The position numbers were made by a program, and so were the translations under genes. From IMG/VR virus record IMGVR_UViG_3300037423_000600, positions 1-64,000 of that record: a DNA stretch of 64,000 bases; one strand, given 5' to 3'. Of this stretch, positions 1,142-40,667 are shown piece after piece. How positions within the stretch are numbered: position 1 is the stretch's first letter; each line of letters opens with the position of its first letter. The DNA comes from a virus. The notes beneath the pieces were generated by a model. The model did no database searches. It was not told the DNA's origin and was given only the letters and a program-made list of their open reading frames with translations.

Positions 1142-1160
1142 TCCAAGGAGGAATTGAATC

Positions 1161-1718: not shown

Positions 1719-1830
1719 GCTCGGCTACGAATCACTTTGGGGTATGAAAAAGACTTAAATGTGTTATAATAGGTCTAAGAAGTCATGGGGCTGAGTGAGA
1801 AGATATTGGGGCAAAAAGGAGGGAAACACC

Positions 1831-2151
1831 ATGCCAAAAATTTATGAAGTAAATGGGCAGGACGTAGAGTTCTTCACAAGTGGAGAACTGGCCGACGCTC
1901 TCGACAGACAGCGGCAAACGATTCGGAAATGGGAGAAAGAAGGCACAATCCCCCAAGCCCAATATCGTTCTAAAACTGGCCGCCGCTTATACACGAAAGA
2001 GCAAGTCACCGCTATCCTATCCACCGTTGAGAAATACGGGTTGAAGCAGGGGACGGCAATCCCGGCGGAGTTCAAGAAGGAAGTTTTTGAAGCCTTCGCC
2101 GCCGCATCCACCCCGGAAAAAGATGAAGAACTGGAAGTCCAGCAGGCTTGA
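1831..2151 (+). CDS. MerR-type helix-turn-helix DNA-binding protein
   Basis: TSGELADALDRQRQTIRKWEKEG..IP...RSKTGRRLYT pattern; AAGGAGG RBS; TGTTATAAT extended -10 near 1762. Confidence 0.85.
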   Translation: MPKIYEVNGQDVEFFTSGELADALDRQRQTIRKWEKEGTIPQAQYRSKTGRRLYTKEQVTAILSTVEKYGLKQGTAIPAEFKKEVFEAFAAASTPEKDEELEVQQA

Positions 2152-2195
2152 GGCTAACCCCTCAAGTCTGTTTTATTGAGAGGAGGGTATTGGCA

Positions 2196-2360
2196 ATGGT
2201 TGTCGTTCAAGTCAAACGGTGTTCTACAGAGGAAGAGTGCAACAAGTTTCTTAAAAGCATTCCCTCGTCGGCCGTCCGGGAAGTTAAAGTTGTAGAGGCC
2301 ACAAGGGGGCTTTCTCCCGGACTCAAGTATATTGTAATTTACCAAGATGACAGGCAATAA
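2196..2360 (+). CDS. Small hypothetical protein
   Basis: AGGAGG RBS upstream of ATG 2196. Confidence 0.55.
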   Translation: MVVVQVKRCSTEEECNKFLKSIPSSAVREVKVVEATRGLSPGLKYIVIYQDDRQ

Positions 2361-2451
2361 GTTTCACCTTTTACATCTTATAATATTTACAAGTTACCCT
2401 TTCTGGGGTAAAATTATATCATCACCTACCACAAAGGAGGCCACACGGCAC

Positions 2452-2733
2452 ATGACGCAGAAGTTCTTTAACCAAGACAATATCCTTACCGAAGAGGTTG
2501 CTCCCGGCACACCAATGGTTGAAATCTCGAAGTCGATGGGGTTCACGGTCAACCTGCAAGGTTACGAGTCGGCTCGGATTGACTGCTCCGTAAAAATTTC
2601 CGGCTCTTTAGTGAATGTCGAAGCTATCAAAGCCGAAGTCACAAAGCAACTGGAAGGCGAAGTGAAGGCGGCGATTGGGCAACTGGTGGAACAACACGAC
2701 ACCCGCAAAACCCTTCTCGGCTATTCTAAGTAA
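2452..2733 (+). CDS. Hypothetical protein
   Basis: AAGGAGG RBS upstream of ATG 2452. Confidence 0.65.
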   Translation: MTQKFFNQDNILTEEVAPGTPMVEISKSMGFTVNLQGYESARIDCSVKISGSLVNVEAIKAEVTKQLEGEVKAAIGQLVEQHDTRKTLLGYSK

Positions 2734-2756
2734 TCGTTGGGGCTTAGGCCCCTTAT

Positions 2757-2826
2757 GGGTGTGAATGGAAGTCTGGGGGCCAAAAGAAGTTACCGCGGAC
2801 AGGAGGTTCGATTCCTCCCACTCCCA
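2757..2826 (+). ncRNA. tRNA-like element without a pairable anticodon arm
   Basis: Acceptor-like GGGTGTG/CACTCCC, D-loop-like AGTCTGG, perfect T arm GGAGG-TTCGATT-CCTCC. Confidence 0.55.
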
Positions 2827-2908
2827 TCCTTGCCTAAAGGGTATCGGTGCTTTAACTACATAATCCTAGTTCAAAGGCAACTCACCGACACTCTTTAGGC
2901 AGGGATGG
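2824..2908 (+). ncRNA. Long RNA hairpin next to the tRNA-like element
   Basis: CCATCCTTGCCTAAAGGGTATCGGTG pairs with CACCGACACTCTTTAGGCAGGGATGG (26 bp, two G-U pairs, one mismatch), plus an inner stem. Confidence 0.55.
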
Positions 2909-2969
2909 AACCCCTCCCTAGCAACTACTATCGCGGCCTTACATATGTAGGTCAGCAACGAAAGGGAAG

Positions 2970-3713
2970 ATGAAAATGAGTGTTCAGGATTGGTTCTCGC
3001 AAGGTTATGAGAAGGTCGAGCAACGGGCGGCGGAAATCGATGAGGCGATGAGCCGAACGTACCTCCCGGATTACATCCTCAAAGAGGAGGATGGGGAGCA
3101 ACCTATGCGGTTTGTCATGGCTACGCCGATTACTTACTACGAGCACTTCCTCCAATCCATCAAGCGGTCCTTTACTTGTCCGGATGGTGGCGATTCCACA
3201 AAGGGCAACTGCCCGCTGTGCGCTTCCGGCAACAAGGCAAACTTCCGGGGTGCGTATCTGATTGCGGACCACCGTCATGAGGAGTGGACCAAGGATGGCA
3301 AAACCCAGAAGCGTCACAACACGCTGAAGGTTGCCAAGTTCGGGGTCAAGGTTCTCAAGTCGCTGGGCAAGCGGGAAGAGGCATTGAAGAAGAAGGGTAT
3401 GGCGGGCGGCCTGCTCGATGTGGACTTCGACGTTATGCGTACAGGCTCCGGCACCGACACCATGTATAACTTCACTCCGGTTGGCCGGAATGAAGAAATC
3501 CCGACTCCTCCGGTTCCTGAGAAGGACGCGAAGGAAGGGAAAGACTACCGGGCTCTCCTTATCGAAGCCATCAAGCCGAAAAGCCGCGAGGACTTGCTTA
3601 AGGTTCTCGGTGGAGGCGGCGGTTCCGCATCCGGTGGAAACTCCGGCGGCGGAGCGGCACGGAAGCCGATTGACCTTGGCGACGGTGACGAGGACGTAAT
3701 CAAGTTCAGCTAA
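2970..3713 (+). CDS. Single-stranded DNA-binding protein (T4 gp32-like)
   Basis: H..CPD..CPLC Zn site, RTGSGTDTMY motif, Gly-rich linker and acidic tail DGDEDVIKFS; directly upstream of the polymerase. Confidence 0.75.
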   Translation: MKMSVQDWFSQGYEKVEQRAAEIDEAMSRTYLPDYILKEEDGEQPMRFVMATPITYYEHFLQSIKRSFTCPDGGDSTKGNCPLCASGNKANFRGAYLIADHRHEEWTKDGKTQKRHNTLKVAKFGVKVLKSLGKREEALKKKGMAGGLLDVDFDVMRTGSGTDTMYNFTPVGRNEEIPTPPVPEKDAKEGKDYRALLIEAIKPKSREDLLKVLGGGGGSASGGNSGGGAARKPIDLGDGDEDVIKFS

Positions 3714-3730
3714 TCCACTTCATCATCCTA

Positions 3731-3766
3731 CTAAAGCCCCATTCGTTAACCCGGGTGGGGCTTTAG
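3731..3766 (+). terminator. Hairpin between SSB and polymerase (terminator or processing site)
   Basis: CTAAAGCCCCA...TGGGGCTTTAG inverted repeat. Confidence 0.5.
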
Positions 3767-3791
3767 ACTCATTTAAGGAGGCTTTTCGCTG

Positions 3792-6215
3792 ATGGCTAAG
3801 AAGAAGGGCGGCCCGAAGGTTAAATCGAAGTCGATGGAGGTACTTATCCCCTCAGATTTTGACTTAGTGGAATGGGCGGCATACTTAAAGCAACACGCTT
3901 CCACGACAAACATCACGTTCCTTGACCGCCCGCAGGAAGAATGGGCCAAGGACCCGAATATACCGCAGACCAAGGAACATTTTGAAGAAATGCTTCACCA
4001 CATCCTCAAATACGACAACATCATTTGTGACGTGGAGACTTCCGGCCTTTCGTTCGTGGACCCCGCCGTTCAGGTGTGCGGACACGTATTGGCGGCGGGA
4101 GGGAAATCTTTTTACGTTCCCATCCGGCACATCACGAATGAACCTCAACTCGATGTAGATTACGTAAACAAGATACTGGCGAACGAAATCTACATGAACC
4201 GCAATAAATTCACCACATGGCATAACGCCGCCTTTGACTACAACCAACTCCGGAAAGACGGTATTGATATGACGTTCCGCTTTAGGGAACGGCTTATTCA
4301 CGATACCCAGATTCAATATTGGCTAGTGGACGAGAACCAAAAGGACAACGAGACATACTACTTCGTCCAAAACGGGAAACCTGCTGTCGCGTCGAAATGG
4401 TCCGGCCTTTACAAAGGACACGCGGCCAAGGCTAAAGAGGCCGGGGCAGTAAAGCTAATGGGGTATTCCCTTAAGGTTCTCTCGCCGCTTCTCTTCGGCC
4501 TGCCCATGACCAAATTCGATGACCTGATGGAGCATATCGGCTTCCACCGCCTGCCTCTCTACTTCGGCGGGAAGTACGCCCGGTTGGACGGCTTCGCCAC
4601 GGAACTCCTCCACAACCATTCGTATCCCAAGCTGAAAGAGGAAAAGATTGTGGATGCTTACCATCACGTTGAAATGCCTTATGTGCGGGTGGTGGCAAAC
4701 ATGATGCGGCGGGGCTTCGGGATATCGGAGCGGGTGGTTCTCCGTATGCGGGAACGCTGTATGGAGGAAATCAACGAGATTGATATGCGGGTGCGGGACC
4801 TGACGGGCGGTATCGAAATCAACTGGAACTCCGGCCCGCAGGTCGCCAACCTATTGTTCAATACACTCAATTATCCGGTTTTAGCGACCACGGATACCGG
4901 GAAGCCCAAGACGGATGCGGAGACAATGGAACGGCTGGCTGAACTGGGGTACCCGCTTCCGAAACTCCTTTCTCGGCGGAACAAGCTGACCAAAACGGTC
5001 GGGACCTACTGTGACGGCTTCCTAAAGGAACTCGACGTAGACGGGCGGATTCACACTTCGTTATTCCAAACGGGCACCACTACGGGCCGCCTCTCTTCCG
5101 GCGAACCGAATCTCCAAAATCTGACGGCTTCCCCGATATTCAAGGATGACTTATCCCGGGATTATATGATTCATCTTCGTAAGCAAATCGGGGATATGGG
5201 CATTAACAAGCAGTTCGACTTCACGGTTCATTTCTGTGACGCGGACGGGGAGCCTTTAGGCATGGAGGACGGATGGGAGGAACAATGCGTCAAGGTGCAG
5301 GAACGTTGGTTCGTCCGCGACTTCTTTACGGAACTCGATTACCTCAACCCGCAGGATGTCGAATACCCGGAGGATATGGCTCCGTTTATCGTGGAGCATT
5401 GTAAGAAAACCAAGGCCCACGAAATGTATGGCACCATCGACGGCCGGAAGATTGAAGAGGAATTGTGCTACTCGGTGGCGGACTTTAACCAGATGGAACT
5501 CCGGATGATGGCCCACTACTCGAACGCGGACAGTATGATATCGGCCTTCGCCCGTGGAGAGGATACCCACAAACGGACGGCGGCGGACGTATACGAAGTG
5601 GATTACAGCAACGTCACCAAGCAACAACGGAAGGACGCGAAGGCGGTCAACTTCGGATTGATTTACGGGAAAACCTCTTTCGGCTTCGCGGTGGATTGGT
5701 ACGATTCGGAACCGGACTTCTGGGTGGATGTCGATTGGGGCTCCGGCCGCGCTCCGGCCAAGAAGTATCTGGAAAAGGCTCAGGGCTTTATCGACCGTTA
5801 TTTCCAAGTGCGGCCGGAGGTCAAGGAATGGATGGACCTGACCGAAGCACAGGTTAAGAAATACGGGTACGTGCGGACCATCACGGGGCGGAAGCGGAGA
5901 CTCCCCGATGCCTTTAGCATGATTAAGTCCGTTGCAAATAAGGCATCCCGGCAGGCGGGGAACACGAAGATTCAAGGCTCGTCGGCGGATTACATGAAGA
6001 TGGCGATGATTAAAATTGAGGACAAATTTGAGGATGATGGTACCTTTGCGATGCAACTGGTTCCGGTCCACGACGAAATTGTAACGGTCACCCTCTACCG
6101 GATTAAGGACCAAGTGGAAGCGACCAAGAAGGATATCATGGAAAACATCATCCCATTACGTTGCCCGATGCGTTCGGACCCTACGACTTGGTTCCGCTAC
6201 GGCTCCGCGAAATAA
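3792..6215 (+). CDS. polA: Family A DNA polymerase with 3'-5' exonuclease domain
   Basis: Exo DVETSG and HNAAFD; TGRLSSGEPNLQN; motif A ADFNQMELR; motif B RKDAKAVNFGLIYG; motif C VHDEI. Confidence 0.95.
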   Translation: MAKKKGGPKVKSKSMEVLIPSDFDLVEWAAYLKQHASTTNITFLDRPQEEWAKDPNIPQTKEHFEEMLHHILKYDNIICDVETSGLSFVDPAVQVCGHVLAAGGKSFYVPIRHITNEPQLDVDYVNKILANEIYMNRNKFTTWHNAAFDYNQLRKDGIDMTFRFRERLIHDTQIQYWLVDENQKDNETYYFVQNGKPAVASKWSGLYKGHAAKAKEAGAVKLMGYSLKVLSPLLFGLPMTKFDDLMEHIGFHRLPLYFGGKYARLDGFATELLHNHSYPKLKEEKIVDAYHHVEMPYVRVVANMMRRGFGISERVVLRMRERCMEEINEIDMRVRDLTGGIEINWNSGPQVANLLFNTLNYPVLATTDTGKPKTDAETMERLAELGYPLPKLLSRRNKLTKTVGTYCDGFLKELDVDGRIHTSLFQTGTTTGRLSSGEPNLQNLTASPIFKDDLSRDYMIHLRKQIGDMGINKQFDFTVHFCDADGEPLGMEDGWEEQCVKVQERWFVRDFFTELDYLNPQDVEYPEDMAPFIVEHCKKTKAHEMYGTIDGRKIEEELCYSVADFNQMELRMMAHYSNADSMISAFARGEDTHKRTAADVYEVDYSNVTKQQRKDAKAVNFGLIYGKTSFGFAVDWYDSEPDFWVDVDWGSGRAPAKKYLEKAQGFIDRYFQVRPEVKEWMDLTEAQVKKYGYVRTITGRKRRLPDAFSMIKSVANKASRQAGNTKIQGSSADYMKMAMIKIEDKFEDDGTFAMQLVPVHDEIVTVTLYRIKDQVEATKKDIMENIIPLRCPMRSDPTTWFRYGSAK

Positions 6216-17213: not shown

Positions 17214-17547
17214 GGACTATGGCATTAACCAAATTGCTTCCGACTTGGAGGAAGTCCTGACGGCTAAAGGGCACACGGACTTTATTCGTAACAAGGATGT
17301 GTATGCAATTTCGGCCCTTATCCATACGGAGGTTTCCGAGTATACGCAACTTTTTAAGAAGTACGGCTTGGCGGACTCCTTTAAGGAGGACCGTGCTATG
17401 GAGATTGCCGATATCATCTTTAGGGCTCTTAACCTTGCGCTCATGGAGAATATCGACATCGCGGCGGCCATTCGGAAGAAGATGGAGTTCAACCAGAACC
17501 GCCCGTATAAATTCGGAACACCGGAGGAGGGAAAACCGAATGTCTAA
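17206..17547 (+). CDS. MazG-like NTP pyrophosphohydrolase
   Basis: LIHTEVSE...EIADIIFR...KKMEFNQNRPYK. Confidence 0.8.
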   Translation: MSEDYGINQIASDLEEVLTAKGHTDFIRNKDVYAISALIHTEVSEYTQLFKKYGLADSFKEDRAMEIADIIFRALNLALMENIDIAAAIRKKMEFNQNRPYKFGTPEEGKPNV

Positions 17548-18280
17548 ATTAAGAACGGCTTTTGACTTTGACCCCGAACGATTGAAAATCATCGAGGTCT
17601 ACAACTCCATTCAAGGGGAGGGCATCGACATTGGTTCGGAGGTTATCTTTGTACGCACGAGTGGCTGTAATTTGTCTTGTGTTTGGTGCGACACAAAACA
17701 TAGCTGGACAGGCCAGCGCGGTGATTCCTTCACCCCCGGAGAACTTCTACGAAAAGTCATCGAAGAAACCAAAGGGGCCAAGTCGGTAATTATTACGGGC
17801 GGGGAACCGTTCGTTCAGCCGCCGGAGCCGCTGACGGAGTTTGTTATCTCCCTCAAGGCTTTAGGCTATCACGTCGCATGGGAAACTAACGGACTCCATG
17901 TGCCGGACGATACCCTAATTGAACTGACTGACCTCTTTACGGTAAGTCCTAAACTCCATTCCTCGGAGCAAATCGCATTTCCGGTTATGACCTTGGATAC
18001 GTGGGCGGCCCGGGCCGGGGCGGAAGGCAAGGTACAATTCAAGTTTGTTATCGGTAGCGAAGAGGATATGGCGGAAGCGGTGTATCTGATTACACACGCC
18101 CAAAACGTCTACCATACGGAGTCTCCCATCGTCTTTCAACCGGAAGAGTCCAAGGATAAAGAAATCTATGCGAAGCTTCCGGAAATGGCGGCAAGGCACC
18201 TTCGAGGGAAGGGCGATAATATTCTCAAGTATTATGTCCGCTATATCCCTCAAACCCATAAACACTACAAAATACGCTAA
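17540..18280 (+). CDS. queE: 7-carboxy-7-deazaguanine synthase (radical SAM)
   Basis: SIQGEG, FVRTSGCNLSCVWCDT, TGGEP, ETNG, VSPK, KFV, PQTHK. Confidence 0.95.
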   Translation: MSKLRTAFDFDPERLKIIEVYNSIQGEGIDIGSEVIFVRTSGCNLSCVWCDTKHSWTGQRGDSFTPGELLRKVIEETKGAKSVIITGGEPFVQPPEPLTEFVISLKALGYHVAWETNGLHVPDDTLIELTDLFTVSPKLHSSEQIAFPVMTLDTWAARAGAEGKVQFKFVIGSEEDMAEAVYLITHAQNVYHTESPIVFQPEESKDKEIYAKLPEMAARHLRGKGDNILKYYVRYIPQTHKHYKIR

Positions 18281-18294
18281 GGAGTGACTCTCTC

Positions 18295-18684
18295 ATGGAA
18301 ACAGTTGAAGAAAAAGTAGTACAGGAAAATATCGAGGCGGCAAATTCGGAACTTAACGCAGGTCAAGTTCCGGAGGAGATTCCGGTACCGGAGAAGAAAA
18401 CCCGAAACCGCCGGAAGAACCAACAACCCGAAGAAACCGTATCGGCGGAATCTGTAGAGAAGTTCGCTCATGCCTTTATGGTGTTGGTCCGTAACGACGG
18501 CACCTTTAGCATCGAGCCTGTCGGCCAACTGGTGGAAGCCCCACCGGAAGAAGGATATGTGTATGCTCCGGGTGCTAACGTTTACCGCACTCTCCTTCGG
18601 GATATTGTGGACAAGCTGGACCGGAAGATTATTGTGGATGAAGTTCGCCGTGCTCTGGCGGCAGGACTGGGAGGTAACATCTAA
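18295..18684 (+). CDS. Hypothetical protein
   Basis: AAGGAG RBS; lies inside the modification island. Confidence 0.65.
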   Translation: METVEEKVVQENIEAANSELNAGQVPEEIPVPEKKTRNRRKNQQPEETVSAESVEKFAHAFMVLVRNDGTFSIEPVGQLVEAPPEEGYVYAPGANVYRTLLRDIVDKLDRKIIVDEVRRALAAGLGGNI

Positions 18685-18935
18685 TGCGCGATAACCTTCG
18701 GATTAAACAAACTGATGCAACTCATTTTGAAATCCGCCGGACCATGACGGAAACCGTAAACCGTGCCAATATGGAGGACCGTAAACGCACTCTGGAGATG
18801 CAGATTGAAACCCTTACGGACCAATTGGATACGCTGAAAAATAATTTGGCGGCGGTCAACGATGCCCTGAAAAACGGCCTTGGTCAGACGGAGAAAAACG
18901 TCGAGGCTAAGGCGGTGGGCGAGGATGGAAAGTAA
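18684..18935 (+). CDS. Small coiled-coil protein
   Basis: Heptad-rich LEMQIETLTDQLDTLKNNL; GGAGG RBS. Confidence 0.6.
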   Translation: MRDNLRIKQTDATHFEIRRTMTETVNRANMEDRKRTLEMQIETLTDQLDTLKNNLAAVNDALKNGLGQTEKNVEAKAVGEDGK

Positions 18936-19503
18936 TGTAGACGGCTTGGAGTATTCCAAGGAGAATATTGAGTTCCACTTCCGGCAGATTATGATGTCCT
19001 TGGGATTGGATTTAACCGACCCTAGCCTTAAGGAGACTCCCGCTCGGGTGGCGAAAATGATGGTATACGAAACTTGTAGTGGCCTCTTTAGTGACCCGCC
19101 CAAAGTCACCACTTTTGAGTTTGAGGATGGAGCAAGTCGGGACTTAATCATCATTGAGGACATTAAGTTTTCCTCTATGTGTGAACATCATTTTGTTCCT
19201 TTCATCGGAAAGGTAACGGTGGCTTACCTCCCGAAAGACAAGTACATGGGCCTTTCTAAAGCGGCTCGGGTGGTGGATTACTTCGCGGCCCGGCCGCAGG
19301 TACAGGAACGACTCACGGCGCAGGTGGCCGACTTCTTAATGGACAAGCTGGACCCGAAAGGGGTTCTGGTTATGGTAACGGCCGAGCATATGTGCATGAG
19401 TACCCGGGGCGTAAAGAAACACGGCTCGAATACCATCACCACGGCCATTCGCGGGGAAATCGACAAACAGGAAGTCATTTCGTCCATACAACTTAAGAGA
19501 TAA
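18925..19503 (+). CDS. folE: GTP cyclohydrolase I
   Basis: ETPARVAK, SMCEHHFVPF.G, GLSK.AR, RPQVQERLT, AEHMCMSTRGV. Confidence 0.95.
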   Translation: MESNVDGLEYSKENIEFHFRQIMMSLGLDLTDPSLKETPARVAKMMVYETCSGLFSDPPKVTTFEFEDGASRDLIIIEDIKFSSMCEHHFVPFIGKVTVAYLPKDKYMGLSKAARVVDYFAARPQVQERLTAQVADFLMDKLDPKGVLVMVTAEHMCMSTRGVKKHGSNTITTAIRGEIDKQEVISSIQLKR

Positions 19504-19570
19504 CGACGAGGGACGCGAATACGGGCAAATACTGTCTAACTTCGCGTCCCTTTCTCATAGGAGGGATGTT

Positions 19571-19912
19571 ATGTTTACGTATTCGGCGGTGGTGACTCGG
19601 GTAGTGGATGGAGACACCTTTCATTGTAATATCGACCTCGGCTTTAGGATGGGCGTAAATGATATGGTTATTCGTATGGCCGATATCAACGCCCCGGAAA
19701 TGTCTACGGAGGCGGGACGGGTAGCAAAACAGTATTTGGTTTCCCGTATTGAGGGTAAGGAGATTATTCTCCGTACCTATAAACCGGACAAGTACGGGCG
19801 GTGGCTTGGTGTAGTATTCGTAGAGCCGGATAAAGGTTCTGTTAACGCGGAAATGGTGGCTAAAGGATTGGCCGTTCCTTATATGGTTAATAAGGAGGAT
19901 GGGGTCTTATGA
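19571..19912 (+). CDS. Thermonuclease (SNase-like)
   Basis: RVVDGDT, IR..DINAPE, DKYGRWLG, VN..MV..GLA. Confidence 0.9.
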   Translation: MFTYSAVVTRVVDGDTFHCNIDLGFRMGVNDMVIRMADINAPEMSTEAGRVAKQYLVSRIEGKEIILRTYKPDKYGRWLGVVFVEPDKGSVNAEMVAKGLAVPYMVNKEDGVL

Positions 19913-20268
19913 GTAAGCAAACGACCGGGGCGGTGGATATCGATGGGGTATTGGCTTCCTTGCTCGAATCCGGTAATTACCCTGAGGATTATAAGAAGAA
20001 AACGGTCATCAGCGGGGCGGTGGAGTCGCTAAAGACGCTCAGGGCTTTAGGTCACCGGATTGTTCTCTTTACCGCCCGATACGAGATTGACCGGGTAGTA
20101 ACCGAGAAATGGCTCCATGATAACGGCTTCGCCGGGCTCTACGATGAACTCATTATGGATAAACCCAAGTTCGATTACGTGATTGATGACCGGGCTATTC
20201 GGTTTGAAGGCTGGGCGGCGACCATCGACAAGGTGTTCCAACTTCATAAGTCGGGCAGGTGGTACTAA
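19909..20268 (+). CDS. Small HAD-superfamily phosphatase
   Basis: DIDGVL motif I, FTAR motif II, KP...IDD motifs III/IV. Confidence 0.85.
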   Translation: MSKQTTGAVDIDGVLASLLESGNYPEDYKKKTVISGAVESLKTLRALGHRIVLFTARYEIDRVVTEKWLHDNGFAGLYDELIMDKPKFDYVIDDRAIRFEGWAATIDKVFQLHKSGRWY

Positions 20269-20468
20269 TGAAAGAACCCATGAGAATTTCCACCCGGCTA
20301 CCCCTCCCCGCCTCTATCTGTGAACATGGATGCAAGCATATGGTGGAACTCCATATCGGAGCCAATCTCTTTCAAATGTGTGAGGTTGATGCTTTCCACC
20401 TTGGGCGCGGGCTGATGGATACGGTAACGGCGCGGGACAATGTGAAAATTTCTTTAGGAGGGAAATAA
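20268..20468 (+). CDS. Hypothetical protein
   Basis: TAATG-coupled ORF. Confidence 0.5.
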   Translation: MKEPMRISTRLPLPASICEHGCKHMVELHIGANLFQMCEVDAFHLGRGLMDTVTARDNVKISLGGK

Positions 20469-20469
20469 G

Positions 20470-20808
20470 ATGCCAGTGAATGTAGCGGTTAGTCAACCAA
20501 TGAAAATGCCTTACGGGATGGCACAGCTTATTGCTGTAACCACGGATTATGAGATTCAATATACGGTTCTTAAGCGCGGCGGGATTATCCCGAAGCAATA
20601 TAACAGCCTGATTGACCTCTTTTTCTACGTAGTGGCCGGGTACGGGAAATACACCGATAATGCCGGAACGACCTATGAAGTCCGGCCGGGCGACCGCTTC
20701 GTGGTTTTGTCGGGGGAGCAATATTCCCTTGAGGGGAGTCCGAATTACGACCTCACCCTTATTCAAACCTCCGGCGTAAACCCGGATAACGCTGTGGTGC
20801 TCGTATGA
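20470..20808 (+). CDS. Cupin-fold protein (possible sugar isomerase/epimerase)
   Basis: FFYVVAGYG...YEVRPGD.F.V..G..Y cupin pattern; the usual metal-binding His residues are not evident. Confidence 0.6.
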   Translation: MPVNVAVSQPMKMPYGMAQLIAVTTDYEIQYTVLKRGGIIPKQYNSLIDLFFYVVAGYGKYTDNAGTTYEVRPGDRFVVLSGEQYSLEGSPNYDLTLIQTSGVNPDNAVVLV

Positions 20809-21521
20809 GTACAAAATTCCAAGACAAGCACGTTCTGATGTTCTCCGGCGGGCTGGACTCCTATCTGGCGTACTTGGTTCTTCGGGATAACGACATCGAC
20901 CCGCAGTTGGTGTATGCAAACCTTGGACATCGGTACATGGAAACCGAATGGGCGGCGGCTCAGGCTTTAGCTATATCCCACGGGAAGGACCTGTTCACTG
21001 ACAACGCCCTCCGTCTGGGCGGCCGGGAAGAGGAAAATGCCTTTATCCCGAACCGGAATGGCTTCCTTGCTATGATAGGGGCCTTCTACGGTAACCATAT
21101 CTGGATGGCGATTATGGACGGGGAGCAGTCGTATCATGACTGTAAGGAAGGTACCTTTGTAGCAATGTCCATGGCTCTTACGGCTCTGTCCGGGAAGAGT
21201 ACGCTTGTGGATTCTCCGTTCTGGGATAAGACAAAGACGGAGGTAATCCGGGCGTTAGACCCGAAGTATTACGGGCTTTTGACTAAAACCCGGTCCTGTC
21301 ACCATCAGCATTTATTCCAAGGGGAACATTGTGGCGAATGTCCGGCCTGCTTCCGGCGGTGGGTTGCGTTCTCTCTGAATGGGATTAAGGATAAATACGT
21401 CCACCTGCCATGGAGTTCAGCGGTGGCGGCGGCGTATTACCGGAAAGCCTCCAAAGGCGAGTACGGCCCCAAACGGTCCCAAGAAATCCTCGACGCTTTA
21501 GCCCGGGAGGGAATCTTCTAA
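20805..21521 (+). CDS. queC: 7-cyano-7-deazaguanine synthase
   Basis: FSGGLDS PP-loop, IPNRN, YHDC, TKTEVI, TRSC, HCGECPACFRR. Confidence 0.9.
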   Translation: MSTKFQDKHVLMFSGGLDSYLAYLVLRDNDIDPQLVYANLGHRYMETEWAAAQALAISHGKDLFTDNALRLGGREEENAFIPNRNGFLAMIGAFYGNHIWMAIMDGEQSYHDCKEGTFVAMSMALTALSGKSTLVDSPFWDKTKTEVIRALDPKYYGLLTKTRSCHHQHLFQGEHCGECPACFRRWVAFSLNGIKDKYVHLPWSSAVAAAYYRKASKGEYGPKRSQEILDALAREGIF

Positions 21522-21958
21522 TGATTATTTTCACGAACGGAGTCTTTGACCTTCTTCATGTAGGTCATCTTGATTTTCTCCGGAAAATCTACGGAGAAAA
21601 GTTTAACTACCCGGACCCGAAGATTGTCGTGGGTATCAACTCGGATGAATCGGTTCGTCGGCTAAAGGGACCTTCCCGCCCGATTATTCCCCAAAACCAC
21701 CGGAAAATGATGCTTGAGGCCCTCTCCATTGTCGATAAGGTCTACATATTTGAAGAAGATACGGCGGTAGAACTTATCCGTAAGCTCAGTCCGGCGGTTT
21801 ACTTTAAGGGTTGGGATTACTTCGGGAAACCGAAATGCCCGGAGCAGGAGTTTGTGGAATCCTACGGCGGAGAGGTTCGCTTGGCGATGCCCCCACTCCC
21901 GTCTTTAGGAGTCATGCATACCACGGACATTATCAATAAAATTAAAGCAGGTGGTTAA
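21521..21958 (+). CDS. HldE/RfaE domain II-like nucleotidyltransferase
   Basis: FTNGVFDLLHVGH, VGINSDESVRRLKG..RPI, FEEDT, KG.DY, TTDIINKI. Confidence 0.9.
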   Translation: MIIFTNGVFDLLHVGHLDFLRKIYGEKFNYPDPKIVVGINSDESVRRLKGPSRPIIPQNHRKMMLEALSIVDKVYIFEEDTAVELIRKLSPAVYFKGWDYFGKPKCPEQEFVESYGGEVRLAMPPLPSLGVMHTTDIINKIKAGG

Positions 21959-21959
21959 T

Positions 21960-22676
21960 ATGTCGAAGCCTCAATGGACGATTGCCGGAGACTGTATTAT
22001 AGATTGGGTGATTCATAATGGAAAAGTTACCCCCACGGCAGGAGGGGCGGGGAACATTGTACGAGGTTTGCTTCATCTTGGGCACAATGTCCGTTACCTC
22101 ACTGTTTACAATCCTATGCTGTATCCCCTTAATGCTGTCCTTCCGGTACACGGGGATTCACTCACTGACTTCTCTCAGCGTAACGTGTTTGTTCGCAATT
22201 ATGATGGCAATATATTTCACAGGTATCGGGAAAATGTTCGCTCTAAGGTATTCGACATTAAAGATGCCTTGGCCGTTATCTGCCATGAAGATTCGGTGGT
22301 TCGCCGCTTTGACGCAATTTATGCCGATGTACGTGACCCTAGAGTTCGTGGTACGTGTCAGTTTCTCCGGATGAGTTCTTCGGACCCATGGGAGGACATC
22401 ATGCGGGGGGTTAATTGGAAGATGGCGGTGGTCACCTATAAAGACCATATCCGTGTCTACAATAATTGGGGCGAACCTACCGTTACCATCGAGTTCCCTT
22501 CGGTGGTGGCGGTGGATGATATCGGGGCGGGGGACACCTTCGATGTTGGCTTCTTGGATTGGTTCTTGACTCCCGAGAATGAAGGAAAGTCCGCCTATGA
22601 CGGCTTTAGACACGCGGTTACCTTGGCACAAGAAAAGGTACAACAGATTGGAGTGTTCCTACATGGCAACTGTTAA
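21960..22676 (+). CDS. PfkB-family sugar kinase (HldE/RfaE domain I-like)
   Basis: GD..ID, GGAGNI...L..LG, DDIGAGDTF. Confidence 0.8.
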   Translation: MSKPQWTIAGDCIIDWVIHNGKVTPTAGGAGNIVRGLLHLGHNVRYLTVYNPMLYPLNAVLPVHGDSLTDFSQRNVFVRNYDGNIFHRYRENVRSKVFDIKDALAVICHEDSVVRRFDAIYADVRDPRVRGTCQFLRMSSSDPWEDIMRGVNWKMAVVTYKDHIRVYNNWGEPTVTIEFPSVVAVDDIGAGDTFDVGFLDWFLTPENEGKSAYDGFRHAVTLAQEKVQQIGVFLHGNC

Positions 22677-23646
22677 TGTTCCTTTCGAAGGTTCTAGAGA
22701 TTACATGACGCTTGGACTCCGTATGTTTGCCCCGGGGCTTGGGGATTTGGTACTTACCATCCCGCCGCTGTTTAATCTTAAAGCTAGGGGCATCATCCAC
22801 CATATTGTTCTGTTCGTATTTAATGAAGGACAGGCCGCGTTAGCTAAATCCTTCGATTTCATCGATACGGTTCAGATTGTGGATTTTGACTCTGATTGCC
22901 GGGCTCAAATGTTCCCCGGGCATTTCTATATTGATATGGCGGAACACCCGCTGGAGAAAATCTGGTGGGGCTCCCCCGAGTATCTGGAGAAGCATGGCAA
23001 GACTCCGGTGAAAAATATCATCGAGCAGATTCTTGGTGGGCAAGGCTTTCCGGAAGTTAACCCGCAACCCCGGAGACGGGGAGCCTATCCTTATGAAGGG
23101 GAACTCTCCAATGCGGTTCTCTTGGCTCCCGGCGGCCGCCGCCGAACGAAACTCCTGCCTGATGAACACTGGCTCACTTTAGCGGAGCATATTAAGCATC
23201 TGGGCTACGATGTTTACCTCATTGGGGACAAACATCATAAGGGGTCGGAGCAACTCCTTAGATTGGAAGCCAAGGGCCTTAAACATTACGACAAGGCATG
23301 GGATTTCGGGCGGATTTCCGGGGTTCAGGCCATCATCGAGTACATCCGGCAGGCTAAAGCGGTGGTGTCCATTGACAACGGCATCTATCATATTGCGAGT
23401 CTGATGGAGAAGCCTACCCTTGGATTCTTCGGCCCGATGCCTTCGTGGTTATGGGGCGGGGTCGGTTCCAAGACGGTCAATATGGACACTGGATGCGGCA
23501 TTAACTGTACATCCATTCCGCTGGATTGGGATTGTGTCGGCCACGCCTGCATGACTACGGACTTCAATCCGTTCTTGGCATTACGCATCTTTAGGGAGGA
23601 TATCGAGCCATGGATTACGGACTCCTCACGTTCACCCCTTACATAG
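22663..23646 (+). CDS. GT9-like (heptosyltransferase-like) glycosyltransferase
   Basis: GLGDLVLTIP, LAPGG...K, VSIDNGIYHIA....KPTLGFFGP, C-terminal Cys cluster. Confidence 0.8.
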   Translation: MATVNVPFEGSRDYMTLGLRMFAPGLGDLVLTIPPLFNLKARGIIHHIVLFVFNEGQAALAKSFDFIDTVQIVDFDSDCRAQMFPGHFYIDMAEHPLEKIWWGSPEYLEKHGKTPVKNIIEQILGGQGFPEVNPQPRRRGAYPYEGELSNAVLLAPGGRRRTKLLPDEHWLTLAEHIKHLGYDVYLIGDKHHKGSEQLLRLEAKGLKHYDKAWDFGRISGVQAIIEYIRQAKAVVSIDNGIYHIASLMEKPTLGFFGPMPSWLWGGVGSKTVNMDTGCGINCTSIPLDWDCVGHACMTTDFNPFLALRIFREDIEPWITDSSRSPLT

Positions 23647-24689
23647 GGGATACGTTCGTCGCTACGGCCTTGGCCCGGAAGATATACAAGCTGTCCGGGC
23701 AGGAGGTCGCCGTCGCTCAAATCGGGGATGAAAATGTGTTTACCTCCTACTTTGCGGATGACACAATGTTGGCTACCTACAGCGGTCCGTACACCGAGTT
23801 CCTAAAGGAGGGTTCCACCTTTAGTCCGGAGGCTCCGCTGTCCAAGCTGTTCTTCAAGGGGCAGTTCAATTATTTCTATTCCGAGACTACAGAGTATAAG
23901 GCCAAGATTGAATCCTTGGTGGCGGAAGTTCTACAGGGGTTTACGAAGGACGAAGTTATCCACACTTTCCACTATACGTATCCACATGCGGCCCTCGGGC
24001 GGGAAGCCCTCCGGCGGGGGCTCACCGTGAGAGGATACGTACTGGATGAAGGCAATAACCTGATGATGATTAATCACCGGGGCGAAAAGGTCAATGCGGT
24101 TATCTGGACTGACGATTTCATCGGTACCCGGCTGGCCCGGCAGTTTCTCGGGACGGACTTGACCATTGACGATTTCAAGGTAAACCTTTCCCCGAGCCAC
24201 ATTGTCGAGAATAAAGTCACCATCCTCCCGGCCACCCGGGGCGGCGGGTTGCCTTCGGTAGGGCATTGGACTTTAGACGCGGAGTATCTGGTACGGGAAG
24301 GCTATAACGTTGAAGTGGCATGGCACAGCCAAGAGGAACTGGATATGTCCCCGTTCATGGCGGCCGGGGCCAATGTAAGCCTGTTCAGCAGTATGGAGGC
24401 TTTCCTCTTCCACATTACCTCCTCCGAGTTCATCATCTGTAATGACTCCTCCGCCTTTCACTTGGCTTGGTACTTCGGCGTTCCGGCTATTGTGAAGCTA
24501 AAGGGTGGGTTCAATTACGAGTGGACTCCGGAATGGGTGGCGGAGCGGAACGATTACCTCTTCTTCCCACCCACTATGATGTACGAGGAAGAGTATCTTA
24601 AGACCCTATCCCATATGGTGAAGGACCTGCGGTTCTCCATCCGGCGGGGTCCGAGTCGAAGGAGGGCGAGGTTCTTTGGCGAGATGTAA
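23610..24689 (+). CDS. Second, more divergent GT9-like glycosyltransferase
   Basis: YIGDTFVATAL and ICNDSSAFHLAWYFGVP match GT9 N- and C-terminal motifs. Confidence 0.7.
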   Translation: MDYGLLTFTPYIGDTFVATALARKIYKLSGQEVAVAQIGDENVFTSYFADDTMLATYSGPYTEFLKEGSTFSPEAPLSKLFFKGQFNYFYSETTEYKAKIESLVAEVLQGFTKDEVIHTFHYTYPHAALGREALRRGLTVRGYVLDEGNNLMMINHRGEKVNAVIWTDDFIGTRLARQFLGTDLTIDDFKVNLSPSHIVENKVTILPATRGGGLPSVGHWTLDAEYLVREGYNVEVAWHSQEELDMSPFMAAGANVSLFSSMEAFLFHITSSEFIICNDSSAFHLAWYFGVPAIVKLKGGFNYEWTPEWVAERNDYLFFPPTMMYEEEYLKTLSHMVKDLRFSIRRGPSRRRARFFGEM

Positions 24690-25038
24690 ACGAATGACCG
24701 TGACGGCTATCGGCATCGACGCTTTAGGACGGTCGGCGTACGCCCGGAATTATAACCGGACGGAGTGTACATCGGAGCCGGGAAAATGTGGCTGTATCCA
24801 TGCGGAGACGGCCCTACTGGAACACATGCCTCGGCCGACGCTGGTTTTAGTATCCCACTCCCCCTGTCTGGACTGTGCTATCCGCTTGGTCCGGGCGGGA
24901 GTGCTAAAGGTGGGCTTTTACTATCAGTACCGCTTGATGGATGGCCTCAATTACCTCAAGGAAAATGGCGTGACTACGTATGCCCTCACGGAGGCTCAGT
25001 GGGCTGACGCTCAAAAATATCTTGTCGAGGAGGAGTAG
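24676..25038 (+). CDS. dCMP/cytidine deaminase-family protein
   Basis: HAE and SPCLDCA Zn motifs; Y....G...L...GV. Confidence 0.85.
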   Translation: MARCKRMTVTAIGIDALGRSAYARNYNRTECTSEPGKCGCIHAETALLEHMPRPTLVLVSHSPCLDCAIRLVRAGVLKVGFYYQYRLMDGLNYLKENGVTTYALTEAQWADAQKYLVEEE

Positions 25039-25041
25039 GCC

Positions 25042-26025
25042 ATGCGTATCTACTTGGCAGGTGGCGAGTCCATGTTAAACATCTTGAAGAACAACGGGGC
25101 GGAACACGTACTGGTTTCCTACTACTACCTCCGGGAGAAAGGGGAAAAGACGGTAGAGCATCTGCTGAACTCCTTCCCCGATGTGTTCTTGGACTCCGGG
25201 GCCTTTACCTTGAACGTCCAAATTGCTAAAGAGGGAATCTCATGGGAGGAGGCCCAGCGTGACCCGAGGATTAAAAACTATGTGGAGGACTATGCTCGGT
25301 TTTTGGACAAGTGGGGCCACCGCTTTAGTATCCATGCGGAAATCGATGTGGGGCCGGAGGAGCAGAAAACAAGACAACGGGAGTTCTTGGAACAATACTC
25401 CGATAGAATCCTCCCGGTTATTCACCCCTCCGACTATCCAGAATATCAGCACTACCTATGTCAGAACTATGACTACGTGGCCCTCGGCGGGGTCGGTCAA
25501 GCGCGGTCGCTGGAGGCTATCAAGGCGTATGTCACTCGGAAAATCCAGTTGGCTAAACGGTACGGCACCCGGTACCACGGCTTCGCCATCACGATTATCG
25601 AAATGATGCGGGCCCTTCCCTTCTACTCCTGTGACTCAACCTCTTGGCTGATGGGTGGTAAGTACGGGATGACGTTTTGGTTCGACGGCCACCGCCTGCG
25701 GGCTTACGACAAATTCTCCAAGAACGTCCGGCGGCGGTTCAAGCGAGAGTGTATGGAGCTTGGAGTCGATTGGGAAAAGTTCATGGCGGATAAGGCCCCA
25801 GCGGTGAACAAGTTCAATTTACTCCAATGGATTCAGTATCAGAAGTTCATGAATACTAAAGGGGCTCAGGGCATCGGCCAGTACAAGGAACAACAGGAGT
25901 CGTTCTTTAGGGAACACCCGAACTATCGGGAAATCTATATCGATGAATACCGGAGGGATGAAAGTGAAGATACCGACTTGGATGCCGGAGCGGTTGGAAA
26001 TACGGACGGAGGACTCGGAACATGA
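25042..26025 (+). CDS. dpdA: TGT-fold base-exchange enzyme, DpdA-like
   Basis: FLDSGAFT, PVIH, YVALGG, YHGFA, SCDSTSW; clustered with folE/queE/queC. Confidence 0.75.
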   Translation: MRIYLAGGESMLNILKNNGAEHVLVSYYYLREKGEKTVEHLLNSFPDVFLDSGAFTLNVQIAKEGISWEEAQRDPRIKNYVEDYARFLDKWGHRFSIHAEIDVGPEEQKTRQREFLEQYSDRILPVIHPSDYPEYQHYLCQNYDYVALGGVGQARSLEAIKAYVTRKIQLAKRYGTRYHGFAITIIEMMRALPFYSCDSTSWLMGGKYGMTFWFDGHRLRAYDKFSKNVRRRFKRECMELGVDWEKFMADKAPAVNKFNLLQWIQYQKFMNTKGAQGIGQYKEQQESFFREHPNYREIYIDEYRRDESEDTDLDAGAVGNTDGGLGT

Positions 26026-37785: not shown

Positions 37786-38022
37786 ATGAATTTGTCACTG
37801 GTGGTTCAACATTTGGTAGCACAAGAGAAGGCCAACGGCTCCGATATGGCGGCGGAGGCTTTAGGGAAATTGCTTGAGGAAACTTCGATTGTCTATTACG
37901 AGTACATGACCGAAGAAGAAATCGCCCAATACATTTTTGATGTCTACTTCGATGACCGCATCACTCATTTGCAGAATGGACTTAGCCGGACGGCGGGCGA
38001 GGTTACGATTGTCAGAAACTAA
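37786..38022 (+). CDS. Small acidic early protein
   Basis: TATACT, leader hairpin, TTGGAGG; terminator GCGGGGC-TTCG-GCTCCGC-TTTT. Confidence 0.65.
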   Translation: MNLSLVVQHLVAQEKANGSDMAAEALGKLLEETSIVYYEYMTEEEIAQYIFDVYFDDRITHLQNGLSRTAGEVTIVRN

Positions 38023-38175
38023 CGGCAGGCGGGGCTTCGGCTCCGCTTTTGCTTTACCCTAAACGGCAAGAGTAAGTAACGAACTCGCCCCAAGTTGTTT
38101 ACTCAAGTTGTCGGGCGGGGTCTATAATATAACTATAAGGGGTTCGGGACTCCTTAAACTTATTATTTTGGAGGA

Positions 38176-38457
38176 ATGGAAATGGATAACATGGAGGAAA
38201 CATTGGGATTGGTACTCACTTATTTTAAATCACTTCAATCTATCTTGGAATTGGCGGAAGGTAAAAAGGATTGGGAATTGGTCCAAACGGTTAGGGCTTC
38301 CTTGGAGGATATGGAGGTTGACTTGGGTTGGGATTACGGGGAATCGGATAAAACAGGCATCCAACAATGGCAAGGCGGAATGGACCGGGCGGAAGGGAAT
38401 TTCGGACATATTACGGAAATTCAAAACTTATCTCAAAAATTAAAGGCCGGGGAATAA
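38176..38457 (+). CDS. Small acidic early protein; gene almost free of isolated G
   Basis: TATAAT, leader hairpin, TTGGAGG, terminator; one singleton G (38320). Confidence 0.75.
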   Translation: MEMDNMEETLGLVLTYFKSLQSILELAEGKKDWELVQTVRASLEDMEVDLGWDYGESDKTGIQQWQGGMDRAEGNFGHITEIQNLSQKLKAGE

Positions 38458-38604
38458 TCCCGGTCTTTTTCTTTTCCTTCTATTATATAAGACACGACCT
38501 CGCCGGGCGGGGACAGGATTCTACAAATTACACAAGCCTTTAGGGCTATGGTATTATTTAAACATGGGCAGGGAACCCATAAACAACACATTGGAGGTAT
38601 TACG

Positions 38605-38877
38605 ATGCAGGGAACTATGGACAAATTGATTGAGGACCAACGCGAGTATGGAAAGGGTCTTATGACACGGGAGGAAAAATTGAGTCCCAATCCGATTCAA
38701 ACTAAATACAACGGGCGGAAGGTTTGGGTGGACGGCTACGGCTGGGGAACCATCAAAGGCGGATATCTTAACGACAGGCATCATATTTTCATCTTCTCGG
38801 CTTTTCATATCCACTTCGCTTCAGGTATCAAAACTACCATCTACGCCGCAAACATTCGGAAAATGGCTCGGGCTTAA
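38605..38877 (+). CDS. Hypothetical early protein
   Basis: TGGTATTAT, leader hairpin ATGGG-CAGGGAA-CCCAT, TTGGAGG. Confidence 0.65.
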   Translation: MQGTMDKLIEDQREYGKGLMTREEKLSPNPIQTKYNGRKVWVDGYGWGTIKGGYLNDRHHIFIFSAFHIHFASGIKTTIYAANIRKMARA

Positions 38878-39048: not shown

Positions 39049-39127
39049 GGGCTTTTTTCTTACACCGAACCAAGTAATTTTCACGACACCTTTCCATAGA
39101 TTATACGCTCGGGGTATATTATAACTA

Positions 39128-39232
39128 TCCCGGGAGGGCTTTACCAAAGGCTCTTATCGGGAACCTCCAATACATCGGCCCGGCAGGGATTCCCGACATT
39201 AACCGATTCGCGGTTACTGTACCCGCCGGGCC
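39128..39232 (+). ncRNA. Candidate structured small RNA
   Basis: Downstream of TATATTATAAC; stems TCCCG/CGGGA, GGCCCGGC/GCCGGGCC and TAACCG/CGGTTA; no ORF with an RBS. Confidence 0.45.
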
Positions 39233-39587
39233 ACAATTTTGTGCCAAATTCATAGACATCTAGTATCCCTCCCTTGCCCTCCGATTTTTGTATCCCCCAG
39301 AAGAAGCCCTAGTAGCTATACATGCCTCGTTCTCAAAAGATTTCACGAATGTAAAACTTTACAAGACTAAAGGATTCAAACCGTAAAACCTATATTATAC
39401 CATAAAACAGGCCCTTCGGTCAAGGAGTCTAGGCAATAAATTTTTTCTTTCACGGACAGGCAAGGCAATAAAAAACATTATTCAAAAAGGACTTCTCAAA
39501 AACCCTTATAAGGCATATAATAGGTAATAGGTAAGGCGGGCCGGGCGGGAATCCACCCCTTACACTAACCTATTGGAGGGAATACAA

Positions 39588-40430
39588 ATGGCAAAAACAA
39601 ACGGCAAGGCAAACGGCGGGAAAAAGGTAACACCAAAAAAGGTAACACCAAAAAAGGTAACACTCCCGGAGGCTCTCAAATTACCGGAAACGGCGGGCCC
39701 GGAGGCAAACGGGGAATACTTCTACTTAACGGATACGGAGGCAAAAACGGCGGGCGGGACGGCTTTAGGCACACCGGAGGACTTGGCTAAGGCTATCCAA
39801 CAAACGGAGGAGGAAAAGGAAAAGGCTATCAAATTTATTTACGGGCCGGGCGGCCAAACATGGTCCATTCTTCCAATCCTCTTGGACCGGAAGGTTAATC
39901 CTTTCTTGGATACCCACTTCCCCATTACGGCCGGGCGGGTAACACAACAAACACTGGAGGAATGGAAAAAGGCTAACGGCACCATTACCATCATACCTAT
40001 CCAAGGCGGGGAATGGACATTTTACACGGTGGCAATACTTCCGGCCAAACAAACCACAATCAAACCTTGGGAATTAAAATGGGGACGGGAAACAGGCAAT
40101 TTCCTTCAATACACGGAATACAAGGAGGCGGAAAAAGGCATCATGGTAACACCCCAACAATACCTCATTACTAACATTACAACTAACCGGGGAAAGGCTA
40201 TCAATCAGGCTAAGGCATTGGGTAAGGTATTCAAATTGGATACCTCCACGGTGGAGGATAAGGCTAAGGTAACTTACACCATCACACCGGAAGGAAAAAT
40301 CCTACAGGCTAACAAAAATAACGGATTGGACAAAAAGGAATATAACTCTATCTCGGATATTATCGGACGGCAGGCAACCAAACATTATACATGGAATAAC
40401 TTGGTCAAGGCTTATACAGGCCGGGCTTAA
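39588..40430 (+). CDS. Hypothetical (putative immediate-early) protein; gene has no isolated G
   Basis: TATAAT near 39516, leader hairpin, TTGGAGG RBS, N-terminal KKVTP repeats, strong terminator. Confidence 0.85.
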   Translation: MAKTNGKANGGKKVTPKKVTPKKVTLPEALKLPETAGPEANGEYFYLTDTEAKTAGGTALGTPEDLAKAIQQTEEEKEKAIKFIYGPGGQTWSILPILLDRKVNPFLDTHFPITAGRVTQQTLEEWKKANGTITIIPIQGGEWTFYTVAILPAKQTTIKPWELKWGRETGNFLQYTEYKEAEKGIMVTPQQYLITNITTNRGKAINQAKALGKVFKLDTSTVEDKAKVTYTITPEGKILQANKNNGLDKKEYNSISDIIGRQATKHYTWNNLVKAYTGRA

Positions 40431-40433
40431 TCC

Positions 40434-40470
40434 AAAAAAAGGAAATTCTCTTCGGGGAATTTCCTTTTTT
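40434..40470 (+). terminator. Rho-independent terminator (bidirectional-type)
   Basis: AAAAAAAGGAAATTCTC-TTCG-GGGAATTTCCTTTTTT. Confidence 0.85.
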
Positions 40471-40667
40471 CTATTTCCACCCACCCACCTTCAAATTTTT
40501 GGAAATTCTACCCGTGCAAGTATATACTCATATGCGAAAAGGATATTCACGAAACCCTCGCTTCTGACACTTCCAGACCTTGTAAAACAATGGACGAGCT
40601 GGGGCGGAGGGGCTATAATTATAAGTGATATAACTCTTATATGAGGCGCAAGGGGAGGGCAACCACC

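Follow-up and report, generated by a model that had tools for sequence, protein, structure and literature searches.

Isolated guanines are nearly absent from the sense strand of whole transcription units in a phage genome and its relatives

The virus record IMGVR_UViG_3300037423_000600 of IMG/VR (G000) is 105,101 bp long with short terminal repeats, and the window, the stretch of DNA analyzed here, is its first 64 kb (positions 1 to 64,000). The window contains two transcription units in which a G on the sense strand almost never stands alone. Unit 1 encodes a small acidic protein, here named ORF93 (ORF, open reading frame), and unit 2 encodes ORF280. We call a G that has no G neighbor a lone G (isolated, single), and all G-run counts refer to the + strand, which carries nearly all genes of the genome. 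The lone-G rule is real, very strong and evolutionarily conserved, and it has no known mechanism. Our literature searches found no prior description of a one-base rule with neighboring-G exclusion that dictates amino-acid succession.

Unit 1 (38111-38490) contains 43 G-runs: 29 GG, 9 GGG, 4 GGGG and 1 single G. The earlier note on this DNA, made from the letters alone, had reported a single lone G in the interval (at 38320), and our count agrees; the unit is bounded by lone Gs at 38110 and 38491. Single Gs make up 60% of G-runs genome-wide, which gives a binomial P of ~5e-16 for unit 1. The three longest lone-G gaps in the 105,101 bp measure 1087, 210 and 171 nt, and the fourth measures 88 nt. 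The longest is unit 2 (39428-40513), the second and third are the two halves of unit 1, and lone-G-free behavior occurs nowhere else in the whole genome. There is no comparable gap for lone C, A or T across the 105 kb, and hence none on the other strand. All nine trinucleotides with G between two non-Gs are missing from unit 1, save the one TGA. The G content of the unit is normal (27%), and its Gs have been rearranged into runs, not removed. The rule is strand-specific: lone C on the + strand of unit 1 is normal or raised (31/41), and the template strand of the units is rich in isolated Gs, with lone C on the + strand at 0.53-0.76.

For each protein we resampled synonymous codons according to the codon usage of the phage, leaving the amino acids unchanged. 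ORF93 has 1 lone G against 26.5±3.7 expected (z -6.7), and ORF280 has 0 against ~82±6.6 (z -12.7). This resampling rules out codon usage as the cause, as well as amino-acid composition alone, an explanation that the earlier note had singled out as fatal to its own reading. Other forbidden words in a pooled set of five units from three phages are secondary effects only (GGT is low, and GATC and CCAG are absent, a genome-wide trait). A 111-amino-acid (aa) Trp-rich ORF also overlaps unit 1 in another frame (38108-38443, + strand); most likely the rule itself gave rise to it, as TGA is barred in every frame and TGG is frequent.

The rule covers whole transcription units and then stops, as the earlier note had proposed. 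It starts 13 nt before the -10 box of unit 1 and includes the leader, the ORF and the terminator; across the two small acidic units of the pooled set, the upstream edge lies 13-17 nt before the -10 box. The three ORF280 units differ in that the rule begins 66-100 nt ahead of the point where the conserved promoter is predicted to start, an extension with 12 G-runs, 0 of them lone (P ~2e-5). After the five terminators, 0, 1, 0, 2 and 0 non-lone G-runs occur before a lone G returns, and the 3' limit of the rule coincides with the terminators. The coding parts of the five units have 362 G-runs with 1 lone, and the non-coding parts (leaders, spacers and terminators) have 62 G-runs with 0 lone. Because the 62 non-coding runs include no lone one, the rule acts at the nucleic-acid level over whole transcription units and not at the codon level.

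The protein sequences themselves are adapted to the rule. The attainable minimum of lone Gs has a median of 0.089 per residue among the ORFs of the genome and is 0 for both ORF93 and ORF280. The residue after Met in these two proteins is A, V, D, E or G without exception (D or E in ORF93), and Cys is absent from both. Every unit has a strong terminator and a stem-loop near its 5' end, the start sites being predicted only. RNA structure over the whole transcript is not unusual (z = -0.27). The residual exceptions to the rule number four, each with A as the next base.

ORF280 belongs to a family of 20 clusters with <50% mutual identity, found by a profile search of 1.84 billion representatives, and it has only a handful of close relatives. 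The attainable lone-G minimum is 0 or 1 in 16 of the 20 clusters and 9-17 in four distant ones (P0016, P0018, P0021 and P0022). Relatives seen as DNA are L002/G002, L004/G003 and L016; the large terminase is 81% identical to that of G000 in G002 and 63% in G003. L002 has 1263 nt with 0 lone Gs, spanning ORF290 (the ORF280 homologue) and a downstream 62-aa acidic ORF in one operon. L004 has two lone-G-free stretches, of which the shorter (503 nt) contains a 129-aa acidic ORF and the longer (1235 nt) an ORF280 homologue, and L016 has 2 lone Gs versus 67 expected. We detected no kinship of the small acidic ORFs (93, 62 and 129 aa) to each other, to L002 ORF96 or to the ORF280 family. ORF93 had been taken as unrelated to the protein at 39588 (ORF280), and thus as an independent instance of the rule; this stands, with a BLASTP match of only 25 residues (E = 0.012) and a profile comparison probability of <1%. 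By these comparisons the rule is kept across the orphan ORF280 family and recurs in unrelated small acidic genes of related phages.

More distant phages do not share the rule. G001, with a large terminase 60% identical, has no lone-G-free stretch on either strand; it has QueE, QueC and DpdA and lacks both the heptose/GT9 genes and the ORF280 family. Bacillus phage BCD7, the nearest cultured relative by large terminase (41% identity), has no such stretch near its terminase gene, and this kinship suggests a Firmicute host for G000. The window DNA has zero matches among GenBank phages, and neither P0016 nor P0022 has any there. Scans of metagenomes and genome contigs for further ORF280-family DNA found none, and extra IMG/VR scans yielded L016 only.

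The pressure is graded and not confined to a sharp gene set. The earlier note had described the neighboring genes at 37786 and 38605 as rich in lone Gs, which holds for the first (29 observed, 33 expected) and fails for the second, ORF90, which is about half depleted (Table 1). Its orthologue in G002 has 10 lone Gs against 26.8 expected. Three small genes of G002 between a zinc-finger ORF and the ORF280 homologue have 6 versus 34, 15 versus 33 and 10 versus 27 (ratios of 0.18, 0.46 and 0.37), and G003 has two small genes with ratios of ~0.65. The minimal gene set that had been proposed, with a putative immediate-early timing, is therefore not sharply bounded. In partly purged genes the nine lone-G contexts are lowered about equally. 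The neighbor genes have sigma-A-like promoters too, but the rule is not kept in them. In the rest of G000, G002 and G003, away from the special units, Gs on the sense strand are somewhat more clustered than composition predicts (ratio 0.75-0.81; 0.90 in G001 and 1.00 in BCD7), which we take as no more than a weak hint.

Unit 1 is a complete self-contained gene cassette. A promoter and a 5' stem-loop come first, a strong ribosome-binding site and the gene for an acidic, predicted helical protein of 91-93 aa follow, and an intrinsic terminator ends the unit. We found no good -35 element for the TATAAT at 38123, and the consensus promoter scan omitted the hexamer for that reason. The GGAGG lies 1 nt ahead of the ATG at 38176 and 7 nt ahead of the ATG at 38182, and this spacing favors the second ATG, which is probably the true start of ORF93 and gives 91 aa.

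ORF93 contains 19 D+E versus 8 K+R, and its AlphaFold model is a three-helix bundle (pLDDT 70). No homologue was found anywhere we searched. There is no match in Pfam, PHROGs, NCBIfam or PADLOC; the AlphaFold model was not run against structure libraries. Small acidic early phage proteins include the DNA mimics Ugi, Ocr and the ArdA type, and RNA-polymerase binders such as T7 Gp2. Like these, ORF93 is small, strongly acidic and predicted to be helical, and it has its own promoter and terminator in a small-gene module; unlike them, it has no homologue, and its sequence suggests no relationship to any of them. The earlier note had suggested a DNA mimic or RNA-polymerase binder; what might point to such a role is the acidity and the predicted three-helix bundle.

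The unit 2 promoter core, CATATAATAGG, is conserved in two relatives. The inverted repeat that we read as the unit 2 terminator has few G-C pairs and was not picked up by the terminator scan. A gene of the ORF280 family is located directly upstream of the large terminase gene in G000, G002, G003 and L016. A small terminase assignment finds no PHROG or Pfam match, and the model of ORF280 (pLDDT 53) has a best structural match of only Z = 3.7. Searches of Pfam, PHROGs, NCBIfam, PADLOC, PDB sequences, Foldseek (PDB and BFVD), VIA and ESM Atlas gave nothing usable about the functions of ORF93 and ORF280, and in ORF280 we saw neither a nuclease fold or motif nor a conserved His or Arg catalytic set.

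Upstream of ORF280 there is an ORF-poor region of ~500 nt (39050-39570) between the small-gene module and unit 2. The minus strand has a near-consensus sigma-70-type promoter, TTGACC-18-TATAAT with a TG motif, at 39423..39394 and another at 39147..39118; both face leftward, possibly toward a non-coding RNA. A matching rule for a leftward transcript from 39423..39394 was rejected, as lone C is only mildly low (0.60 versus 0.73). A non-coding element, CGAATGTAAAACTTTAC-N-AGACTAAAGGA, is common to the window (39344-39376) and L004 (3047-3080), with diverged flanking DNA; it includes a CTTTA/TAAAG near-palindrome. L004 also has two copies of GAATGTCAACCGTTA and a third, shorter copy, GAATGTCAAC, at 3093-3200, just upstream of the ORF280-type promoter. 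One related copy of GAATGTCAACCGTTA is found in L002 at ~2984, with no clear copy at the matching position of the window. These copies resemble operator sites.

Table 1. Positions of the two units and other features of G000
Feature	Position	Strand	Details
Unit 1	38111-38490	+	transcription unit with 43 G-runs, 1 isolated G
-10 hexamer TATAAT	38123-38128	+	direct reading; preceded by G-rich stretch CGGGCGGGG
Stem-loop	38136-38156	+	9 pairs, at predicted transcript 5' end
Shine-Dalgarno GGAGG	38170-38174	+	direct reading
ORF93	38176-38457	+	acidic, 93 aa
Single isolated G	38320	+	context TGA in codons GTT GAC; removable by one synonymous change
Intrinsic terminator	38442-38478	+	11-pair stem then T run; next G, 38491, isolated
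Unit 2	39428-40513	+	promoter region, leader, ORF280 and terminator; 109 G-runs, 0 isolated
Sigma-70-type promoter	39493-39521	+	TTCTCA-17-TATAAT
ORF280	39588-40430	+	disordered Lys-rich N-terminus, beta-rich core (predicted)
Inverted repeat then T run	40441-40472	+	read as unit 2 terminator; direct reading
ORF90	38605-38877	+	14-15 lone Gs observed vs 26-29 expected, z ~-3.5, ratio 0.53
Large terminase gene	40641-42428		
Gene cluster	17297-26022	+	QueE, GTP cyclohydrolase I, SNase-like nuclease, HAD phosphatase, QueC, nucleotidyltransferase, PfkB kinase, two GT9, deaminase, TGT/DpdA-like

We tentatively favor the explanation that the sense nucleic acid is under selection in single-stranded form, most likely as messenger RNA (mRNA), and that the selecting agent is guanine-directed and blocked by an adjacent G. 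A guanine-directed activity in the infected cell would attack a G unless another G adjoins it, and each isolated G would be a potential hit. Candidates for the agent, whether from phage or host, are an endoribonuclease and an enzyme that exchanges or modifies bases. Messages that need to work while the activity is on would have evolved to zero lone Gs, and less critical neighbor genes would have fewer lone Gs than expected. We infer both that RNA is the substrate and that such an enzyme exists.

An agent that reads duplex DNA and makes no distinction between the strands is excluded, because the template strand is full of isolated Gs. The coverage of the untranslated regions (UTRs), the end of the rule at the terminators, a cost per site and the 5' stem-loops together argue that the transcript or the displaced sense DNA strand is under selection. 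There looks to be a per-site cost, since the neighbors are graded from 0.18 to 0.65 and the nine contexts are depleted about equally. The stem-loops and terminators fit messages that are removable only by internal attack; this is a weak argument, as the transcription start sites are only predicted.

Such an activity would resemble the pressures behind CpG depletion against ZAP, UpA depletion against RNase L and ACA-free messages against MazF. The first two are found in animal RNA viruses that evade a host RNA sensor or nuclease. As in these viruses, a very short context is purged here from coding and non-coding sequence, by synonymous and non-synonymous means, in a strand-specific and graded way. 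The differences are that the context is a G without a G neighbor, that the purge is absolute in a few genes instead of mild and genome-wide, and that the virus is a DNA phage.

MazF offers a parallel at the level of single messages, as mRNAs without ACA resist it. The units share with MazF-resistant messages the absence of a short target from the entire transcript, UTRs included and beyond what composition predicts (1/43 in unit 1, 0/62 in non-coding parts), and this would allow selective expression under an endoribonuclease. Motifs of the MazF type are defined 3-7-mers, unlike the one-base degenerate target here, with G excluded on both sides; EndoA of B. subtilis cuts U/ACAUA (bioRxiv 10.1101/2023.03.12.532304). 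We did not find a MazF-like or other RNase gene in the phage, in which SNase-like and TGT/DpdA-like genes are present.

Several points weigh against the target-avoidance explanation. We know of no enzyme that singles out a G whose two neighbors are both non-G. Enzymes of the RNase T1 and barnase type do not fit the rule, and a domain search found no barnase/T1-type RNase (PF00545) in the phage. DarT1 is ruled out as the agent, since its modification of G is indifferent to context and extends to GG sites (PMC11543638). The extension of the rule 66-100 nt upstream in the ORF280 units is not predicted by a purely RNA-level cause, except if transcription can also start farther upstream. Lone Gs occur in normal numbers in most phage genes, those for the capsid and the terminase among them, so the activity would have to be time-limited or tolerable for those genes.

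The genome encodes a pathway that may act on guanine in DNA. The preQ0-pathway genes of G000 include GTP cyclohydrolase I (1.7e-61), QueC (1.1e-16) and a radical-SAM QueE-like protein, and they are accompanied by a TGT-family gene, the TGT/DpdA-like protein at 25042-26022, which matches PHROG 887 (3.4e-46). This protein has no match to the Pfam TGT profile, and QueD was not identified among the pathway genes. Interleaved with the 7-deazaguanine genes are a complete-looking ADP-heptose-type pathway (HAD phosphatase, nucleotidyltransferase and PfkB kinase) and two GT9 transferases. G002 keeps the same arrangement with 52-92% identity. The cluster is a candidate for a sugar-bearing deazaguanine or protein heptosylation system.

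The rule could be a DNA-level footprint of phage guanine hypermodification, in which the context preference of a TGT/DpdA-like enzyme, with later addition of heptose, would tell isolated G apart from GG. In a few units the sense strand, promoter included, would have to be modification-free (or fully modified) for the host RNA polymerase. We regard this as the main rival explanation, if on the whole unlikely. Both G000 and G002 carry QueE, FolE, QueC, the PHROG-887 gene, the ADP-heptose-like pathway and two GT9 genes. G001, with QueE, QueC and DpdA and no heptose/GT9 genes or ORF280, is also without the rule. The upstream reach of the rule in the ORF280 units fits an effect on DNA. Phage DpdAs can be motif-specific, with GA plus GGC in CAjan (PMC7544227) and GA in iggy (PMC10484667). 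If DpdA requires DNA to be locally single-stranded, as has been suggested (PMC10164549), its preferred substrate would be the sense strand displaced in a busy gene.

Hypermodification is harder to reconcile with the constraint on one strand only: the template strand, where lesions block polymerases, is full of isolated Gs. G000 also avoids GATC, GAATTC and GTCGAC, sites whose G is normally isolated, an indication that a bulky modification gives isolated Gs no reliable protection. A context of "non-G on both sides" resembles no reported DpdA motif. The phage shares with DpdA systems the preQ0 synthesis genes and a TGT/DpdA-like gene, and known G modification likewise depends on neighboring bases. 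Known DpdA motifs, unlike the lone-G context, are read on both strands and have no reported gene-specific motif-free zones; here one strand of a few units is concerned. A broader reading posits a novel guanine-directed activity on single-stranded nucleic acid, which might come from the phage's TGT-family transglycosylase together with the heptose enzymes, or from ORF280. It would cleave or hypermodify nearly all RNA, or the displaced sense DNA, at isolated Gs as a means of shut-off or defense, and the messages of ORF280 and a variable small acidic partner such as ORF93, altered even in their protein sequences, would alone be fully immune. This reading strikes us as rather unlikely.

It is improbable, in our view, that the rule reflects self-immunity, in which ORF280 would be all or part of a guanine-directed nuclease or modifier for host shut-off and the small acidic proteins would be its inhibitors or partners. 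The ORF280 and ORF93 messages would lack targets so that they could be produced while the enzyme is active. The rule does track the ORF280 family over 16 clusters and is missing in G001, which lacks the family. L002 has ORF290 and the 62-aa acidic ORF in one lone-G-free operon, and the acidic partners change fast and share no homology, as is often the case for immunity proteins. The Lys-rich N-terminus of ORF280, predicted to be disordered, would suit nucleic-acid binding. ORF280 itself shows no nuclease fold, motif or conserved His/Arg catalytic set, however, and its fixed place directly before the large terminase gene suggests that it takes part in packaging or binds DNA. The remaining phage messages would also all be exposed to the enzyme.

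We give little credence to avoidance of a host housekeeping decay endonuclease, of the RNase Y type that cuts after G, for the sake of ultra-stable messages. RNase Y of B. subtilis favors cleavage between G and A, with U at -2 and -3 (bioRxiv 10.1101/2023.03.12.532304). This preference, the 5' stem-loops and strong terminators of the units, and the Firmicute host suggested by the BCD7 kinship are compatible with the idea. The specificity of RNase Y is weak and spread over many features, however, and 63% of its sites lack GA (same source). The nine contexts are removed about equally, C-flanked ones included, and are not concentrated in the preferred U-rich, G-before-A context. The four residual exceptions all precede A, the favorite context of RNase Y, and GGA, in which a G still precedes A, is the commonest run context.

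Positive selection for G-runs, as G-quadruplexes, R-loop-prone clusters, or Shine-Dalgarno-like or GGA sites for ribosomes or CsrA, seems to us a poor explanation as well. GG-run density is ~40% above the genome average (100 versus 71 per kb), and GGA and GGAGG motifs are frequent. A need for runs would leave a stray single G harmless, yet the proteins avoid every residue pair that forces one. There is no single run context, and RNA folding is unremarkable. 7-deazaguanine in DNA would prevent quadruplexes, which also counts against this explanation.

Transcription-associated hypermutation, eroding isolated Gs on the exposed non-template strand without selection, would fit the strand specificity and the limits at promoter and terminator. 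It is scarcely believable, since G content is not reduced (22-27%) and the Gs have moved into runs, G-initial codons are kept by a preceding G-ending codon, and 423/424 runs comply across lineages that differ by >50% in protein sequence. We found no supporting point for chance, for amino-acid composition or for an artefact of sequencing or assembly, and all of these can be set aside as practically impossible given the probability of unit 1 alone, the resampling scores of both genes, the intact ORFs and the homologues from independent samples that obey the rule.

Restriction-site avoidance also removes short targets selectively, and G000 shows it strongly (GATC occurs 19 times versus 411 expected). 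Avoidance of this kind is palindromic, affects both strands and is genome-wide, unlike the lone-G rule, which is strand-specific and local. G000 has zero copies of ACCGGT, GAATTC, GCCGGC, TGGCCA, GACGTC, GCATGC and CGCGCG, and one each of GTCGAC, AGGCCT and CTCGAG. G001 is without any GATC or GGCC, and palindrome avoidance is seen in G000, G001 and G002. CTTAAG is over-represented in G000 and G002. CTTTAG occurs in G000 in 168 copies on the + strand and 105 on the - strand, with ~26 expected per strand. It is not a promoter element, because 135 of the 168 + strand copies are inside ORFs and the only consensus in the flanks is a G at -2. In L016 the large terminase gene is split (1129-1446 and 2570-3913, in the region 1129-3913) by an inserted 266-aa ORF at 1496-2296, an arrangement that suggests an intron or intein with a homing-endonuclease-like gene.

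A rule like this implies very strong selection, and the selecting agent is most likely an enzyme or sensor of novel specificity in a phage-Firmicute system. It may lead to a context-specific G nuclease or modifier that could serve as a tool, to a principle of host shut-off or defense, or to a consequence of 7-deazaguanine hypermodification. Long isolated-G-free stretches also offer a cheap computational handle: a search for them in virus collections would list genes under this pressure, and setting compliant members of the family against non-compliant ones could indicate which gene is responsible.

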